Numbered from the stretch's first letter, positions 9,965 to 61,041 are shown. The stretch is 64,000 nucleotides of DNA from an uncultured Acidobacteriota bacterium (GCA_963837015.1 CAWIMI010000008.1:3035-67034), one strand, 5' to 3'. Notes: generated by a model from the letters alone, not told the origin. Translations and numbers: made by a program.

Positions 9965-11002
9965 TCAGTACGCTAACTGGAAAACCACATGTACGATTGC
10001 CGTGGAATCCACGGGTGTACCCAAACGTTGTGCCGGCTTGAACCGCATCTGACTCGCCGCCGTGACCGCGGCCTCATCCAACCCATGGCCCAGGCCACGT
10101 ACCACGCGATTCACGTGCAATTGCCCATTCGCGCCAAACATCACTTCCAGCAGCACCTCTCCCTCGAGCTTGAGCTGCCGCGCTTCCTGCGTATAAACCG
10201 GGCTGGGCTTGGAAATGATTTCGACCGGCGTGGTGGCTGGTCCGCTATCCGCTTGCGCGATCTTGGGTCCGCCGTGCGAAAGTTCCTGCGCGCCAAATCC
10301 CGCCGTCTGCACCGCTGCACCGTGATTTTTGTTGTCGCCCTGCGCGATCCCGTTTCCGAAACCTGCGCTCGCGATCGTTCCCTTGATCCCTTTCGCACCG
10401 CCCGCTCCATTGCCCGTGCCCTGGCCTTCCGGCAAATCAAACGATCCCAGCTTCGCTGAGGCGAGATGGGCGTTGTCCTTGCCCTGCCCCTTCAAACCGC
10501 TTGGATCGCCGAATCCCCCGGTCTGCACTTGCTGTATCGGAGCGCTGACCGTGGCCGGAGCCGAGCTGCCAAACGCGCCCGTGTACACGATCTTCGCCGG
10601 CATCGCGCTCGACGGCGCCGCCAGTTCTGGCGCCTTGAACTTGGTCTCTAGCTTCGGAGCCTTCTCTTCCTCCTCTTTCTTTTTCGGCGGGCGGATATCT
10701 TTTGGCACAAACAACTTCGCGGTCGGGAAGATTACCGGAGGTGCCACCTTGGCCAGGACCACCGGTTTCTTAAGCTTGACTTTCGGGGGCGCCGGTTGCG
10801 GCTTCAAATCGGGCCTCGGAACCAGTTCCGTCACGGTCATTCTCTTGCTCAGCCGCAGAGTGTCTGGAAACAAGAAGCCAACGCTCAGCAGCAGCAGGAT
10901 AAAAAAGACCTCGATGCCGTAACTGGTCGCAAACGTGCGCCAGCTTATGTGCCGTTCCGGCAGAAGACCAAATTCGAGCTTGTCAGGCGTAGCCATCCAC
11001 AC
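9965..11002 (-). CDS. TonB family energy transducer
   Basis: N-terminal TM segment (IEVFFILLLLSVGFLF), a Pro/Lys-rich spacer (PRPDLKPQPAPPKVKLKKP), and a C-terminal TonB domain (PVYTQEARQLKLEGEVLLEVMFGANGQLHVNRVVRGLGHGLDEAAVTAASQMRFKPA). It lies 35 nt upstream of the M48-like gene on the same strand. Confidence 0.85.
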   Translation of the reverse strand: MWMATPDKLEFGLLPERHISWRTFATSYGIEVFFILLLLSVGFLFPDTLRLSKRMTVTELVPRPDLKPQPAPPKVKLKKPVVLAKVAPPVIFPTAKLFVPKDIRPPKKKEEEEKAPKLETKFKAPELAAPSSAMPAKIVYTGAFGSSAPATVSAPIQQVQTGGFGDPSGLKGQGKDNAHLASAKLGSFDLPEGQGTGNGAGGAKGIKGTIASAGFGNGIAQGDNKNHGAAVQTAGFGAQELSHGGPKIAQADSGPATTPVEIISKPSPVYTQEARQLKLEGEVLLEVMFGANGQLHVNRVVRGLGHGLDEAAVTAASQMRFKPAQRLGTPVDSTAIVHVVFQLAY

Positions 11003-37764: not shown

Positions 37765-39057
37765 TCAGGTGAGGTAAAGACGGCCGTGATTCATTTTGTG
37801 TTGCAGGCTGGCGGCGAGTTGGTCGATGTCGGAGGCTGCGATGTCACCGACCAAGCGATCCTGGAGAAAGGGCGTGCGATTACTGCCGACGGTATCGCGG
37901 CGAATTTGCAGAAGCAGGGCGTGAACTGCGTTTGAGTCAAATTTCTGCGGAGTCAGCCGGACGATTTCATTCAGCGTACTGCCGAGCGAATGACGCTCAC
38001 GGTAAGGACGCTCGCTGGTCATGGCGTCGAAAGTGTCGGCCAGGCCGACGATGCGCACGGGCATGGGCAAATCTTCGAGCAGCAATCCGTCGGGATACCC
38101 GGAACCGTCGCTACGCTCATGGTGCCAGCGCACGATCTCGGGAATGCGGGGCCAGGGAAACTGGACACCGCTCACGATTTGATGTCCCACAATTGTGTGG
38201 TCCGCCATTTCCCGAAATTCCTCGGCATCCAGAGAACTTGGCTTGCCGAAGAGGCGCTTGTCCACGGCAACCTTCCCGATATCGTGCAAATAACCGGCTG
38301 AGCGAAGGGCCGTGACTTCGGTTGGATCCATGTTCATGGCTTCACCGATGGCGGAAGCGTAGCGGCCAACGCGCAGGGAATGGCCGTGAATGTTGATGTG
38401 CTTGACGTCAATGGCGGTGGCGAAAGCTTCGAGAGCATTGTCGTAGAAGCCGTGCAAGGACGCCATGAGGCGAAGATTTTCCGAGACACGCTGGGCCAGA
38501 GTCTGAGTGAGCGAATGATTGTGGACGGCGAGAGCCACGTAGTGGCAGAGCAACTCCAAGGACTCGAGGTCGCCGGAATCGTAGAGGGCGTCACCCTCAC
38601 GACGCCCCAGAGCGATGAGGCCGACGAGCTTGCTGCCGACCTTGAGGGGAACGATGCACTTGAAGAGCTCGGGAGCAACATTTCCGTTGGCGCTCAGGTA
38701 AAGGTCGGAGGAGCCGGAGTCCAGAATCAGCGGCTCGCGGGACGAAGTGAGAGCATGAACGTGTCTGGGCAGGAGCGGGATTACGGCCGGTTCCGGCATT
38801 AAGGTGAATCCCTCGGCTGCGATCGAGGTGAGAAGGGAGGGGCGGTCGCTATATGTAAAGAGCGCCCCCTCGCCGGAGCCGCCAGCCTCGATGGACGCCG
38901 ACAACATGGCGCGGGCGGTCTGGGGAAATTCACGCTCGGCCGTCATCTCCGGGCCGAGATCGGAGAGAGCTTCGACCGTTCGCAGAAGGCGCCGAAAGTT
39001 GTCTTTTTGCAATGGCACGCGCTGGGGAGCAAAACCACAGCAGAAAAAGAGTAACAT
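37765..39057 (-). CDS. GAF-domain HD-GYP phosphodiesterase
   Basis: HGHSLRVGRYASAIG...AGYLHDIGKVAV...HHERSDGSGYPDGL, the HD and GYP signatures, with a GAF-like N-terminal half. The exact start is uncertain. Confidence 0.85.
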   Translation of the reverse strand: MLLFFCCGFAPQRVPLQKDNFRRLLRTVEALSDLGPEMTAEREFPQTARAMLSASIEAGGSGEGALFTYSDRPSLLTSIAAEGFTLMPEPAVIPLLPRHVHALTSSREPLILDSGSSDLYLSANGNVAPELFKCIVPLKVGSKLVGLIALGRREGDALYDSGDLESLELLCHYVALAVHNHSLTQTLAQRVSENLRLMASLHGFYDNALEAFATAIDVKHINIHGHSLRVGRYASAIGEAMNMDPTEVTALRSAGYLHDIGKVAVDKRLFGKPSSLDAEEFREMADHTIVGHQIVSGVQFPWPRIPEIVRWHHERSDGSGYPDGLLLEDLPMPVRIVGLADTFDAMTSERPYRERHSLGSTLNEIVRLTPQKFDSNAVHALLLQIRRDTVGSNRTPFLQDRLVGDIAASDIDQLAASLQHKMNHGRLYLT

Positions 39058-39150
39058 GCACCTGGTAAACGAACTTGTTAGTTAGTTTGGTGCATCGAAG
39101 GCGAGAAGTGCACGGCATCGAAGAGACTAGCGGTCACATTGCACGGCGCA

Positions 39151-39729
39151 CTAGCGACGAGGTGTTTTGTTATGGATTGTTTTGAAGGTCATCTCGTTCG
39201 CGCGGCTTCCGGTCTGTTTTTTCCATTGAAAGAAGAGGTCCGAATAGGTTGCGGTGATGTAATCGGCGCGGCTGATTTGCAAAAGGCGGGCCGTGCGATC
39301 AATCCAGCGTGAAGCGCCTTCGATCTCGCCGAAGTTACCAATGGGGGTTTCATCCACGACCACGTGCCCTTTGGCGTCAGCCCACTCGGCGCGGAATTTC
39401 TCATAGCGAAAGGTCGGGGCAAATCCGAGAGTGTGAAGAATAGCGTCCAGCTTTGCGCCGTCCTCGATCTTCGTTTCCGTTTCCACCCGCGTCTTGTGGC
39501 GCCCTGTCTTGCCCTTGGCTTTGTGAGTCAGCAGCCATTCGGATCCATACTTCCGCAATCGAAGCAGCTCGCCGCGCTGGCGCAGCGGTTGGCCAGGCAC
39601 ATCATAGAGCGTATTTATTTCGTGAGTTCGGCGCGTAACCAGGCGAAAACTGAATGTGCGCAGCCGTTGATTGAGCGCGCGCAGGTCGTCAATTCGAAAC
39701 TTGATCTCGATCTCGTTGTGCAGGGCCAT
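39151..39729 (-). CDS. CYTH-domain protein (class IV adenylate cyclase / CyaB-like)
   Basis: The internal ATG 39729-39727 gives MALHNEIEIKFRIDD...LRLRKYGSEWLLTHKAKG...VVVDETPIGNFGEIEG, the ExExK CYTH signature. The 67 upstream codons of the ORF overlap the rhodanese tail and are rejected. Confidence 0.85.
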   Translation of the reverse strand: MALHNEIEIKFRIDDLRALNQRLRTFSFRLVTRRTHEINTLYDVPGQPLRQRGELLRLRKYGSEWLLTHKAKGKTGRHKTRVETETKIEDGAKLDAILHTLGFAPTFRYEKFRAEWADAKGHVVVDETPIGNFGEIEGASRWIDRTARLLQISRADYITATYSDLFFQWKKQTGSRANEMTFKTIHNKTPRR

Positions 39730-39767
39730 GGGAAGCAGTATAGAAGGCTCGGGCGTCGGGAATGTCA

Positions 39768-40745
39768 CTAGGCGAACGTCGGCAGTTTTATCAGGTCGCT
39801 GGGTGGCACCGGTTCCAGCGGTTGACCCGCCTTCTTCCACGCCGCCACGCCGCCAACGAGGACAAACGCGCTGAATCCCTGTTCTCGCAGTTGCAGCGCC
39901 ACCCGGGCGCTGGTCGCTTCGCGCGCTCAAGTACAGTAGACGTAAATGTCTTTGTCCTTGCGGAGGGTTTTGAGTTCCTCGGTGAGGTTGTTGGGTTCGA
40001 TGCGAATCGATCCTTTGATGCGCTCCGCGCCAGCGTCGTAGTAGCCGTGGCTTCGGACGTCAAGAATCAGAACCTTATCTTTTTCCTCCGAAGCCAGTCT
40101 CGTTGCCAGCTCTTCCACCTGTGCGCGCGGCACCACGCGGTACACCTTATTCTTGTGGTAAAGCCAGACACGGTAAACGATGTAAACGATGGCCGCTACG
40201 AAAAGTACTTCTTCAAATACGCGGCCTGCAGCCTGGAATCCACGCGTGATTGCGGCCAGAAAGTCGCGAAACAAGAATCCCAGAGTGCCGTAGGCCAGGA
40301 TATACAGCGACGCGCCAGCGGCGTCGAAGCGAAGGAACTGCATAGGGCGCATCTTCAGGCTGCCGGCGAGCGGCGGGGCCATGGTATTGACGCCGGGAAT
40401 GAACTTGGCGACCAGGAGCGTAGTCTTTCCCCGTTTGTAAAAGGACTCAGCCGAGCGCAGAACACACGACTCCGGATTCGCCGACAGGCGGCACAGAAGA
40501 CCCAGGAGGCCCCATCCCATGTAGCGGCCGAGGATGAAGAGCAGACTGTCGCCGAGCAGCATTCCGCTTAGGGCGACGAGTAAGACTTTAGGTACACTCA
40601 GACTGCCAGCTGCCGCGCCGGCTCCTCCGGCCACGAGAGCTACAGCCGCTGGAACGGGCAGGCCGATCGCTTCAGCCAGCACAACCACGAAGATGACAAG
40701 ATAACCGTGATGCGCGATCAGTGAGAGAATATTGTTCATCTTCAA
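39768..40745 (-). CDS. DedA-family membrane domain fused to a rhodanese domain, with in-frame TGA (39927-39929) at the catalytic Cys position: candidate selenoprotein, or a nonsense-disrupted gene
   Basis: DedA: HHGYLVIFVVVLAEAIGLPVPAAVALV. Rhodanese: VLILDVRSHGYYDAGAERIKGSIRIEP...DKDIYVYCT-TGA-AREATSARVALQLREQGFSAFVLVGGVAAWKKAGQPLE. The same frame continues for 52 codons to TAG 39768-39770. Confidence 0.75.
39894..39912 (-). promoter_or_regulatory. SECIS-like hairpin 14 nt downstream of the rhodanese TGA
   Basis: Minus strand: UGA-GCGCGCGAAGCGAC-CAGCGCC-CGGGU-GGCGCUG. Perfect 7-bp stem with a 5-nt loop containing GGU. Confidence 0.45.
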
Positions 40746-40820
40746 CGCATCAGAACTGAAGGTATTAGATAGGCTGCCAAGTCAACAGGATTCAAAGCCC
40801 CAGGGAGGAACAATAATCCA

Positions 40821-41219
40821 ATGCTGACAAAAACCAAAGCCGTTCGCCGCCACATCAATCTCCCCAATCGTAAAGTACCTCTGCCATTCAGCGATGCGGT
40901 CCTGGTAGGCAATACTCTTTACCTTTCCGGACGCATCGGTATCGACCCCGCGACCGGCGTGGCGCCTGAAGACGTCAACCAGGAACTTCGTCTGCTGTTC
41001 GACGGTTTTGAGGGCGTCCTCGCCGAGGCCAGCATGAATATGGATGACCTAGTCTGGGTACAAGTTTACTCGCCCGACGTTTCTTTGTGGGAGCCCTTCA
41101 ACAACGCCTACGTCCAACGGTTCGCAAAAGACCTGCCGGCGCGGGCGTTTATCGGCTCGGGGAAGCTGTTGAAAGGTGGAAGATTCGAGATGCTCGGAGT
41201 GGCGGTGAAGAGATCGTGA
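40821..41219 (+). CDS. RidA/YjgF family protein
   Basis: PFSDAVLVGNTLYLSGRIGIDPATG...ARAFIGSGKLLKGGRFEMLGVAV, the typical RidA pattern. Confidence 0.85.
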   Translation: MLTKTKAVRRHINLPNRKVPLPFSDAVLVGNTLYLSGRIGIDPATGVAPEDVNQELRLLFDGFEGVLAEASMNMDDLVWVQVYSPDVSLWEPFNNAYVQRFAKDLPARAFIGSGKLLKGGRFEMLGVAVKRS

Positions 41220-41220
41220 A

Positions 41221-42210
41221 CTACTTTTCTCTCGCTACAACGAATTCCGGCGCCCACAACAAGGCCCGCTTGATCTCGCCATCGGGGAATCCGCAGATCG
41301 CATTTCGCGCCAGCGCGGCATACTGCATGGCGCGGGCGTTAGCAGCTTCGACTGAGCCGTAACGGTTCAGAATCTCGAGGATTTCTGCATGAGTAACGCC
41401 GTCGAAGGCGCGTTCCCGCACTACCCGGCCGATGCGCTCGCGCTCAATCGGCGTACAGCGCTCGAGCGCATGAATCACCGCCATCGTTACTTTGCCCTCG
41501 CGTAGATCGCTGGCCACGGGCTTGCCCAGGATGTCCTCGGAGGCGGTCAGGTCGAGCACATCATCTACAATCTGGAACGCCATGCCGAGGTCCCGGCCGT
41601 ACTGCGCGAGATTCTCTTCCTGTTCTGGAGTTGCCCCGCCCAGAATTGCCCCAATCCGCATGCATACGGAAAATAAGCAAGCTGTCTTGCGGAAGATCAG
41701 GTCGAAATGCTCGTCCGAGGAAATCAGCTTGCCCAGTTTTTCCATCTGCAGCAGTTCGCCTTCGACCATCTGCTGGGTCAGATCGATCAGCGTGTCCAGA
41801 ATGCGGAAGTTGCGTTCCTGCACAGCAATCTTGAAGGCCTGCATGTAGAGCCAATCGCCCGCCAGCACGCACTTGGAGTTTCCCCATTGCGTATTGGCAG
41901 CGGGACGGCCACGCCGGATCTGGGCCTCGTCGATGATGTCATCGTGAACCAGCGTGGCGGTGTGAATAATTTCGACGACCGCACCCAGCTTGATAGCACC
42001 GCGTCCCTGGTAGTCGAGGAGTCTGGCAGACAACAACAGGAGCATGGGACGAATGCGCTTGCCACCACCGCTGCGCAGGTATTCACCGATTTCTGTAATC
42101 GCCTCAACTCCCGAGACGGTATCGCGCCCAAACTCGCGCTCAATGGCGGAAAGGTCGCCGCGCAGCAATTCAAAGATTTCTTTTCCGTTGATGGTGGCTG
42201 GCGTGCTCAA
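41221..42210 (-). CDS. Polyprenyl diphosphate synthase (trans-IPPS, IspB-like)
   Basis: First DDxxD in TLVHDDIIDEAQIRRGRPA, second in AFQIVDDVLD. Confidence 0.9.
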   Translation of the reverse strand: MSTPATINGKEIFELLRGDLSAIEREFGRDTVSGVEAITEIGEYLRSGGGKRIRPMLLLLSARLLDYQGRGAIKLGAVVEIIHTATLVHDDIIDEAQIRRGRPAANTQWGNSKCVLAGDWLYMQAFKIAVQERNFRILDTLIDLTQQMVEGELLQMEKLGKLISSDEHFDLIFRKTACLFSVCMRIGAILGGATPEQEENLAQYGRDLGMAFQIVDDVLDLTASEDILGKPVASDLREGKVTMAVIHALERCTPIERERIGRVVRERAFDGVTHAEILEILNRYGSVEAANARAMQYAALARNAICGFPDGEIKRALLWAPEFVVAREK

Positions 42211-42255
42211 TTAGTTCGCCCCAACTCCAAAGCCTAAACTCCAACTGTAAAACTT

Positions 42256-42753
42256 CTAGTTCGTTCGGTAGTTTGTAAACTGCGTATCAATGCCGAAATC
42301 CTGCGCCCGGAGCAGCGTAATAATTTCCTGCAACGCGTCGCGATCCTTTCCGCTCACTCGTACCAAGTCTCCCTGAATCGAAGCATTCACCTTCTTCTTG
42401 GAATCCTTGATGACCTTGACGATCTGGCGCGCTTTCTCAATGGGAATGCCCTGCTGCATCGTGATTTTCTGCTTTACGGTGCCGCCCGCGGCGGCTTCAA
42501 CGGCACCATAGGTTAGTCCCTTGAGAGATACGCCACGCTTCACCAGTTTCTGCTGGAAGATCTCGGTGACAGCCTTCAGCTTATACTCGTCCAGCGAGTG
42601 CAAATTGATGGCCTCCTTGCCTTCGAGTTCGATGTTTGACTTCGAATCTTTCAGGTCGAAACGGGTGTGAATCTCCTTCAACGCCTGCTGCATGGCGTTC
42701 GCCACTTCCTGCAGGTCAAGCTTGCTCACAATGTCAAAAGTATTCTCTGGCAT
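42256..42753 (-). CDS. yajQ: YajQ family nucleotide / cyclic-di-GMP-binding protein
   Basis: FDIVSKLDLQEVANAMQQALKEIHTRFDLKDS...ASIQGDLVRVSGKDRDALQEII; 165 aa. Confidence 0.9.
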   Translation of the reverse strand: MPENTFDIVSKLDLQEVANAMQQALKEIHTRFDLKDSKSNIELEGKEAINLHSLDEYKLKAVTEIFQQKLVKRGVSLKGLTYGAVEAAAGGTVKQKITMQQGIPIEKARQIVKVIKDSKKKVNASIQGDLVRVSGKDRDALQEIITLLRAQDFGIDTQFTNYRTN

Positions 42754-60240: not shown

Positions 60241-61041
60241 TTAAGGGGTGTCCCGCTTTTCTGTCTCGGACCGCGCCTGGGTCGAGTGCACTACCCGAGT
60301 TACGGCTGACTTCAGTTCCTCAGCGTTGAAGCCAAACGGACCGGGTCTGCTCTTATAAGCCACGCGTCCTGTGGAGTCGATCAAGTAAAGGCGGTCTGGC
60401 CACGCGGTGTAGGCCCGCTCGGTTGAGTTGCCAAATTCATCCAGCACCGCGGGAATCTCTATTCCGAGCTTGCGCACGCAAGCTCCGGCCACAAAACCGC
60501 GCTCTTCCTCGCTTCTCGGACTGGCAAACACAACCTTGTCCTCGAGGTTGCTGTGCATCTGCCAGACGTCACTGGGATGCGCTTCGGTAATGTAGACCAC
60601 GAGGAAAGCAGCCTGGCTTCCATACTCTTTGTAGAGCTTGTTGAGGGCGGGCACCTCCCGCCGGAACGGAGGTCAAGTGTAGCTGCCAAATATGAGTACC
60701 ACCGGCTGTCGTTGAGCGGTAAACGCAGACAGCTGTATCTGCGCGCTCTTGTCCAGCTTGGTTAAAGAAAAATCTGGTGCGGGGTCGCCTATTTGCAGCG
60801 TGCCGCTACGGGCGCGCATCCACAACGTTTCGAATGGAAGTACGAGAAACGCGACCGGACCAGGAACTCTGGCCATTACCCGAGCAAACTTCTCGGGGGG
60901 CTGCCGCATGACCGTGTACAACGCCCCGCAGGCGAAGATCCACAAAAGCGCGAGCACCGCGAAAGCCGTAACCAACCGCGTTCTTACCGACTCGCCCTTC
61001 GAATTCAGAACCTTCGTCCCCACAAACTTTGTTGCCCCCAC
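60241..61041 (-). CDS. Iodothyronine-deiodinase-like thioredoxin-fold protein with in-frame TGA (60673-60675) at the active-site position: candidate selenoprotein
   Basis: ORFs 60673..61041 and 60241..60654 are in the same frame and are joined by ...QPVVLIFGSYT-TGA-PPFRREVPALNKLYKEYGSQAAFLVVYITEAHPSDVW. This matches the deiodinase signature FGS-x-T-U-P-x-F and the downstream (Y/F)(I/V)xEAHPSDxW. There is an N-terminal TM anchor. Confidence 0.8.
60646..60662 (-). promoter_or_regulatory. SECIS-like hairpin 10 nt downstream of the deiodinase-like TGA
   Basis: Minus strand: UGA-CCUCCGUUCC-GGCGGG-AGGUG-CCCGCC. Perfect 6-bp stem with a 5-nt loop containing GGU. An alternative fold, CCUCCG...CGGGAGG, starts directly after the UGA. 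Confidence 0.45.

Follow-up and report, generated by a model that had tools for sequence, protein, structure and literature searches.

Fusions of a DedA membrane domain to a cysteine-type rhodanese are known in the COG0586 subfamily, for example PA1209 of Pseudomonas aeruginosa, and the role of their rhodanese part has been called unclear (PMC10127716, PMC12893004). Rhodaneses also occur among selenoproteins: a review from 2026, which covers more than 110 families of prokaryotic selenoproteins, distinguishes five rhodanese forms, including form 3 (NF041203, with a CxU motif) and TsoB, which resembles a rhodanese/DsbD fusion. Here we analysed a DedA-rhodanese gene on the minus strand of a 64,000-nucleotide (nt) stretch of DNA from an uncultured Acidobacteriota bacterium (GCA_963837015.1, CAWIMI010000008.1:3035-67034), referred to below as the window. 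The gene contains an in-frame UGA at the place of the catalytic cysteine (Cys). Judged from comparative sequence evidence, the probability that this UGA, codon 271, is recoded as selenocysteine (Sec) at the catalytic site of a membrane-anchored rhodanese is about 0.9.

The in-frame UGA at the rhodanese active site

The open reading frame (ORF) stops at TGA 39927-39929 directly after ...KDKDIYVYCT. Conceptual translation past this codon in the same frame gives 52 further sense codons (AREATSARVALQLREQGFSAFVLVGGVAAWKKAGQPLEPVPPSDLIKLPTFA), which end at TAG 39768-39770, and the ATG of the next gene lies at 39729, 38 nt downstream of the TAG. These positions had been given in the initial annotation, which proposed a candidate Sec rhodanese, and all of them were reproduced by our translation, the 52-codon extension exactly. 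The true start of the gene is most likely ATG 40739 and not TTG 40745, because homologues begin with MNNIL or MSNIL. The complete recoded coding sequence is predicted to span 39768-40739 (minus strand) and to consist of 323 codons and the TAG stop, with ATG at 40739-40737, the UGA as codon 271 and TAG at 39770-39768. This gene model is based on translation, on the N-termini and lengths of homologues, and on the read-through being kept in 157 other loci.

The initial annotation had suggested examining this codon in orthologues. TGA was present in 79 of 80 loci from GTDB species representatives of Terriglobales/Terriglobia, with 63-88% amino acid (aa) identity to the window protein, and the remaining locus had TGC. 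A scan of 80 soil-metagenome loci, which was seeded with Cys forms to gather Cys-form DNA for contrast, gave TGA in 78, TGT in one and one unreadable codon. In total the TGA was found in 157 independently assembled loci with 63-96% aa identity, and the frame was open to the normal C-terminus in each of them. The same picture was seen at the protein level. Most matches with 79-96% identity were 269-270 aa long and cut exactly at the TGA position, while the matches with 63-71% identity, and one with 85%, were 323 aa long and read YCT-C-xR[ED]ATSARVA. The exact 270-aa product of the window had no record in public assemblies. The named gene calls from NCBI, JGI and ENA that we encountered for TGA forms were 270-aa proteins called 'VTT domain-containing protein' or 'membrane protein DedA'.

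The codon was also found as TGA in forms only 32-57% identical to the window protein, again with the frame open to the normal C-terminus. More distant relatives were collected with a profile-free search of 1.84 billion cluster representatives, from which the 150 best clusters were taken. Among these, 65 were Cys forms reading YC[STAN]-C-PNExxSA, which is what the motif given in the initial annotation, YC(S/T)-C-PxEA(S/T)SA, had anticipated, and 31 others stopped abruptly at ...[YF]C[TSA]. For one of the distant cut-off clusters, annotated as Candidatus Deferrimicrobiaceae and thus belonging to a different phylum, the DNA showed the TGA, an open tail, and the same RNA stem at the same distance (see below). 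Three giant proteins, P0244 (2327 aa), P0293 (1197 aa) and P0384 (1654 aa), matched the rhodanese part of the query at 16, 8 and 10 separate places, which suggests tandem arrays of such domains.

The domain structure places the UGA at the active site. In domain scans, which were run with the UGA replaced by Cys, a rhodanese homology domain was detected at residues ~219-304 (39828-40085, minus strand; Pfam PF00581, 48.5 bits against a cutoff of 22.2), extending across the UGA. In the phmmer alignment with the solved rhodanese 6mxv the TGA falls on the catalytic Cys (YFYC-GGGFR-S in 6mxv, YCT-U-AREAT-S in the window), as it does on the Cys of homologues. The earlier assignment of the TGA to the catalytic position was thereby borne out. 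The UGA at 39927-39929 (minus strand) is the predicted Sec codon of a CxU motif, C269-T270-U271-AREAT-S277, and the active-site motif is C-x-U or C-x-C (VYC-T-U in the window, YC-x-C in Cys forms). The best NCBIfam match was NF041203 (rhodanese_LYCAU, 'rhodanese-related (seleno)protein'; 88.7 bits, E = 2.2e-25), which covered profile positions 11-124 of 126 and aligned with residues ~196-311, in the 325-aa numbering from the TTG start.

A natural Cys form, P0001, is 85% identical to the window protein. Its AlphaFold model (mean predicted local distance difference test score 80.8) shows ten helices N-terminal to residue 197 and after them an alpha/beta domain, which Foldseek matched to single-domain rhodaneses with target-normalised TM-scores of 0.7-0.78. 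No solved DedA structure was among the Foldseek matches of this model. In the locus of this protein (L084) the codon is TGC (10811-10813); the locus lies within the Sec clade and its hairpin is intact, so that it looks like a recent natural switch from U to C. A TGC variant inside the Sec clade indicates that U and C are interchangeable at codon 271.

The 52 codons after the UGA (39771-39926, minus strand; AREATSARVALQLREQGF...KLPTFA) form the C-terminal half of the rhodanese fold. That this tail is the missing half of the domain, as the initial annotation had supposed, agrees with the extent of the PF00581 match across the UGA and with the modelled fold, which the tail completes. The tail is open in frame in all Sec-form loci and differs from the tail of P0001 in one of 52 residues (S/N). 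Its conservation is that of a protein under purifying selection. Among 78 distinct Sec-form genes, the ratio of nonsynonymous to synonymous substitution rates (dN/dS; Nei-Gojobori method) was 0.10 for codons +13 to +52 after the UGA and 0.08 for the 44 codons before it, with a dS of ~1.5 in both flanks. Longer read-through tails were seen in a few species, with 70-73 codons in L058, L075 and L081 and 53 codons in L012, L060, L069 and L078, which indicates C-terminal extensions beyond the 52 codons.

The hairpin downstream of the UGA

A perfect 7-bp hairpin, CAGCGCC-CGGGU-GGCGCUG, lies at 39894-39912, 14 nt 3' of the TGA, at the place where the initial annotation had noticed a likeness to a bacterial Sec insertion sequence (SECIS). 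Its core stem, GCGCC/GGCGC, pairs 39905-39909 with 39895-39899 and encloses the loop CGGGU at 39900-39904 (minus strand). Counted from the U of the UGA, the core stem occupies nt 20-34 and the apical loop, CG[G/U]GU, nt 25-29. Where codon +11 encodes Leu, as in the window, the stem gains two more pairs, giving the 7-bp form. Together with a zone of constrained RNA the element begins at codon -1 (ACU) and reaches nt 36, counted from the U of the UGA (39894-39932, minus strand), as delimited by frozen synonymous sites and low dS.

The comparative data support conservation of the hairpin at the RNA level. Among the 78 Sec-form genes, codons +7 (GCC), +9 (GUG) and +10 (GCG) were each identical in 78 of 78, and codon +6 (AGC) in 76 of 78. 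Four-fold degenerate codons elsewhere in the same genes had a codon entropy of 1.3-2.0 bits. Accordingly low was the synonymous rate: dS over codons +1 to +12 was 0.42, which is 3.5-fold under that of the flanks. The stem G20-C24/G30-C34 was unbroken in all 136 distinct 69-nt segments from the 157 Sec-form loci, and its sole variation consisted of two C-to-U changes that yield G.U pairs. The outermost pair, 18-36, is formed between the synonymous third positions of a Thr (ACN) and a Leu (CUN) codon and was C-G in 45 cases and G-C in 9, with zero mismatches. In a Sec form with 37% identity the same stem was found at the same distance from the TGA, though the loop there encodes different amino acids.

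The six Cys-form loci gave a further view of the element. The stem is gone from L057, L165 and L167, whose codons +7, +9 and +10 differ from those of the Sec forms; in L093 (TGT) it is partly lost, and in L084 and L166 (70% identity) it is kept. The proposal of a conserved hairpin was in this way upheld by the frozen synonymous sites, by one covarying pair, and by decay in several Cys forms. As a separate observation, L084, L166 and L093 look like snapshots of a conversion from Sec to Cys followed by erosion of the SECIS.

Three frozen codons nearer to the UGA lie between it and the stem (39918-39932, minus strand) and are left unexplained by the hairpin: -1 (ACU, 75 of 76), +2 (CGC, 74 of 76) and +3 (GAA, 73 of 78). 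They may reflect a requirement of the UGA context or of the spacer. A lower helix, formed by alignment columns 10-12 with 45-47, was also considered and was rejected as unsupported; it is mostly paired, but it shows no compensatory change and is broken where the Arg codon is AGG.

Probable selenocysteine decoding and competing explanations

In the proposed mechanism, translation would start at ATG 40739 and the UGA at codon 271 would be read as Sec. The G+C-rich stem-loop of the mRNA would act as a bacterial SECIS and recruit SelB carrying Sec-tRNA(Sec), after which the ribosome would proceed through 52 codons to the TAG at 39768. The product would be a 323-aa inner-membrane protein with a tethered rhodanese. 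In Cys-type rhodaneses the active-site residue takes up sulfane sulfur as a persulfide. By analogy U271 may take sulfane sulfur as a selenosulfide, or another chalcogen, or may cycle with Cys269 through a selenenylsulfide. This chemistry would be carried out at the membrane, beside a divergent DedA domain in which the flippase signature has been lost and a separate CX8C pair acquired. Under limiting selenium the 270-aa shortened product would be expected.

When the window was scanned for TGAs that interrupt long open segments in frame, a second such gene came to light, a deiodinase-like gene with a thioredoxin fold (60241-61041, minus strand; TGA 60673-60675, ...VVLIFGSYT-U-PPFRREV; PF00837, E = 1.6e-33; NF038285, 187 bits). 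The ORF track cuts it into pieces of 122 and 137 aa. A hairpin, GGCGGG-AGGUG-CCCGCC, is located at 60646-60662, nt 14-30 after the UGA. The codon was TGA in all four DNA copies (the window and three relatives), and distant homologues have Cys. The protein shares 54% identity, and the column of the U, with the published deiodinase-like selenoprotein of Occallatibacter riparius DSM 25168. 'Deiodinase-like protein' is one of three known selenoproteins listed for this strain, a cultured member of the Terriglobales that is treated as a Sec-utilising bacterium (PMC12013277), and an older survey records selenoproteins in Acidobacteria (PMC1794560). As the window gene is orthologous to a published Terriglobales selenoprotein, it supports Sec decoding in this genome. 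In JGI gene calls for deiodinase-like homologues on short contigs (P0121-P0153; L171, L172) the TGA is rendered as W (FGSYT-W-PPF), apparently by use of genetic code 4, and such selenoproteins are stored as full-length 'peroxiredoxins' with a false Trp.

Several results weigh against recoding by Sec or against the SECIS role of the hairpin. No homologue of selA, selB or selD was detected with tblastn (E. coli SelA, SelB and SelD as queries) in the window (64 kb) or in any of the flanking sequences retrieved, and ARAGORN found no tRNA-Sec in the same DNA, the window being without any tRNA gene. The NF041203 score of 88.7 bits is below the curated cutoff of 115. The covariation of the hairpin (Fisher p = 2e-10) comes from the single pair 18-36 with a test that ignores phylogeny, and RNAalifold keeps only the invariant 5-bp stem, which is itself without covariation. 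The folding energy is unexceptional for the G+C-rich context (z = +0.59 for the 66-nt fold against shuffled sequences; second z-score +0.58); because it is no better than that of shuffled sequence, the significance of the hairpin rests on the comparative data. A search of Rfam at gathering and permissive thresholds gave no match; to our knowledge, Rfam holds no general bacterial SECIS model.

The best of the competing explanations is that the UGA is read site-specifically as Cys or another standard amino acid, either by a selC*-type tRNA-Cys(UCA) together with a SelB paralogue or by an acidobacterial allo-tRNA. From sequence data, Sec insertion and SECIS-dependent Cys insertion look alike. A selC* tRNA-Cys accompanied by selB* is known from Desulfobacterales and Syntrophobacterales. 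Acidobacteria frequently have allo-tRNAs, and these are able to suppress stop codons in E. coli (PMC5389517). However, selC* genes are reported from anaerobic Firmicutes, Thermodesulfobacteria, Nitrospirae and Proteobacteria, not from Acidobacteria (PMC5389517), and the cultured Terriglobales member that carries an orthologue of the second TGA gene is classed as Sec-utilising. It is also hard to explain why 79 of 80 species would use costly UGA recoding just to insert Cys, since TGC works, as in P0001. In the window 12 other long ORFs terminate normally at TGA, which makes general suppression unlikely and rules out a genome-wide reassignment of TGA that had been considered as well; because of these ORFs, recoding at codon 271 would be site-specific. 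Taken together, we find insertion of a standard amino acid improbable.

Less probable still is that translation is meant to stop at the UGA, or mainly does so, giving a 270-aa DedA protein with an inactive rhodanese stub, and that the 156 nt beyond are conserved as a regulatory RNA or as the leader of the next gene. The sampled gene calls do give the TGA forms as 270-aa proteins (for the second gene, some JGI contigs have W instead). Because Sec insertion in bacteria is inefficient, some shortened product would be expected under selenium scarcity. However, the tail evolves as coding sequence in the gene's own frame, with variable third positions and conserved amino acids, and its dN/dS of 0.10 at a dS of ~1.5 excludes both a pseudogene and a non-coding conserved element. 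The tail completes the rhodanese fold, the stop falls exactly at the catalytic-Cys column, and the Cys forms are contiguous proteins carrying the same tail.

A nonsense mutation, pseudogene or sequencing error, that is a single TGY-to-TGA change in this genome, had been named as the alternative in the initial annotation and would look the same at the codon level, with one close relative reading TGC, but it is contradicted by the TGA in 79 of 80 GTDB and 78 of 80 metagenome loci, each assembled independently, and in the 32-57% identical forms with their open frames, and its probability is negligible.

The DedA domain, gene context and known systems

Besides the predicted Sec rhodanese, the protein contains a DedA/VTT membrane domain at residues ~33-154 (40278-40643, minus strand; Pfam PF09335, 43.9 bits against a cutoff of 33.9), with the helical membrane part reaching to ~196. 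Four charged residues, E39, D51, R130 and R136 in YghB numbering, are held essential for undecaprenyl-phosphate flipping (PMC10127716). In the alignment with E. coli YghB (23% identity) E39 is kept, D51 is replaced by A, R130 by K and R136 by N, the D51 column being less certain. The Asn at the R136 column (N118) is invariant in the DedA-rhodanese family and is Ser in distant members. For the UptA equivalog models of NCBIfam, whose cutoffs are 300 and 250 bits, the scores were 44 and 32 bits; PRK10847 gave 42 bits with a cutoff of 236. These results suggest that the domain is not a standard undecaprenyl-phosphate flippase.

A Cys83-X8-Cys92 pair (LLCRLSxNPExCVLR; 40464-40493, minus strand) lies within the domain and is invariant in the family alignments; it is absent from E. 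coli YghB and specific to the DedA-rhodanese fusions. A motif search, which misses fragments, returned the CX8C pair in 54 of the 65 cluster representatives of the Cys form and in 22 of the 31 of the Sec form. The rhodanese domain would be cytoplasmic by the positive-inside rule, because KNKVYRVVPR follows the last helix.

A more speculative idea, which we regard as unlikely though worth stating, is that the DedA domain is one half of a membrane chalcogen relay, in which the C83/C92 pair would work with the CxU site of the rhodanese instead of flipping lipid. Such a relay might serve the uptake or hand-over of sulfane sulfur or selenium, for example import of thiosulfate or selenite coupled to reduction or trafficking. 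A DedA protein was long ago linked genetically to selenite resistance, and a relay would echo this link. If true, a redox chemistry would be defined for a DedA subfamily for the first time, and abundant soil Acidobacteria would possess a major function that depends on selenium and has gone unannotated.

The gene is embedded in a conserved neighbourhood. In the window (37765-42753) and in L001, L084 and L165-L167 we found genes for YajQ, a polyprenyl synthase, in part a PDDEXK protein, an opposite-strand RidA, the DedA-rhodanese, a CYTH protein and a GAF/HD-domain protein. The CYTH gene is on the same strand, 38 nt downstream. Scans for sigma-70 promoters and intrinsic terminators around the DedA-rhodanese gene found none; because no terminator is predicted between them, the selenoprotein gene and the CYTH gene may be co-transcribed.

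Terriglobales belong to the most abundant bacteria of soil. The gene is carried in its predicted Sec form by almost all species sampled, and its family is widespread in soil Acidobacteria. The gene calls seen cut the protein to a 270-aa 'VTT/DedA' protein, and the rhodanese half and its probable selenium dependence are thus left unannotated. The nucleophile of the DedA-rhodanese fusions would appear to be important enough for an upgrade to Sec in about one third of the family clusters. The putative acidobacterial SECIS is compact and well conserved, and should be useful for better annotation of selenoproteins in soil metagenomes. The words DedA, VTT and SNARE are absent from the 2026 review of prokaryotic selenoproteins, and our literature search found no described DedA selenoprotein of this kind.

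The hairpin can be compared with the SECIS of E. coli fdhF. Both are stem-loops immediately 3' of the UGA within the coding sequence, with a small apical loop that exposes G and U ~22-29 nt from the U. The loop at nt 25-29 in the window fits the position of G23/U24 in the loop of fdhF, and in the hairpin of the deiodinase-like gene GGU stands at nt 21-23. At 5-7 bp, all or almost all of them G-C, the stem is shorter than that of fdhF; it has no evident bulged U and its sequence is unrelated.

With the Cys-type fusions of COG0586 the window protein shares the order of domains, PF09335 followed by PF00581, and the distant Cys-form fusions have the same CX8C pair in the membrane domain along with their YC[STAN]-C-PNExxSA active site. 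The difference is the predicted Sec in place of Cys; the literature on these fusions mentions no Sec forms. TsoB (NF045694, 'rhodanese form 5') is likewise a selenoprotein with a fused rhodanese-like domain, the partner being a DsbD-like part instead of DedA, but it has two Sec residues in a UxxxxU motif, and the NCBIfam scan of the window protein returned no match to its model. The best NCBIfam match, NF041203 ('rhodanese form 3'), shares with the window protein the rhodanese fold, Sec at the position of the catalytic Cys and, two places before it, a Cys (LYCAU in the family, VYCTU in the window). That family models a free-standing domain of ~126 aa, whereas here the domain is predicted to form the C-terminal part of an integral membrane protein of 323 aa. 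The U is followed by the loop AREATS, and the score is under the family cutoff. CxU rhodanese selenoproteins are thus already catalogued and no new principle is involved, but the DedA fusion is an uncatalogued form, and it adds a membrane-integral member to the rhodanese selenoproteins described so far.

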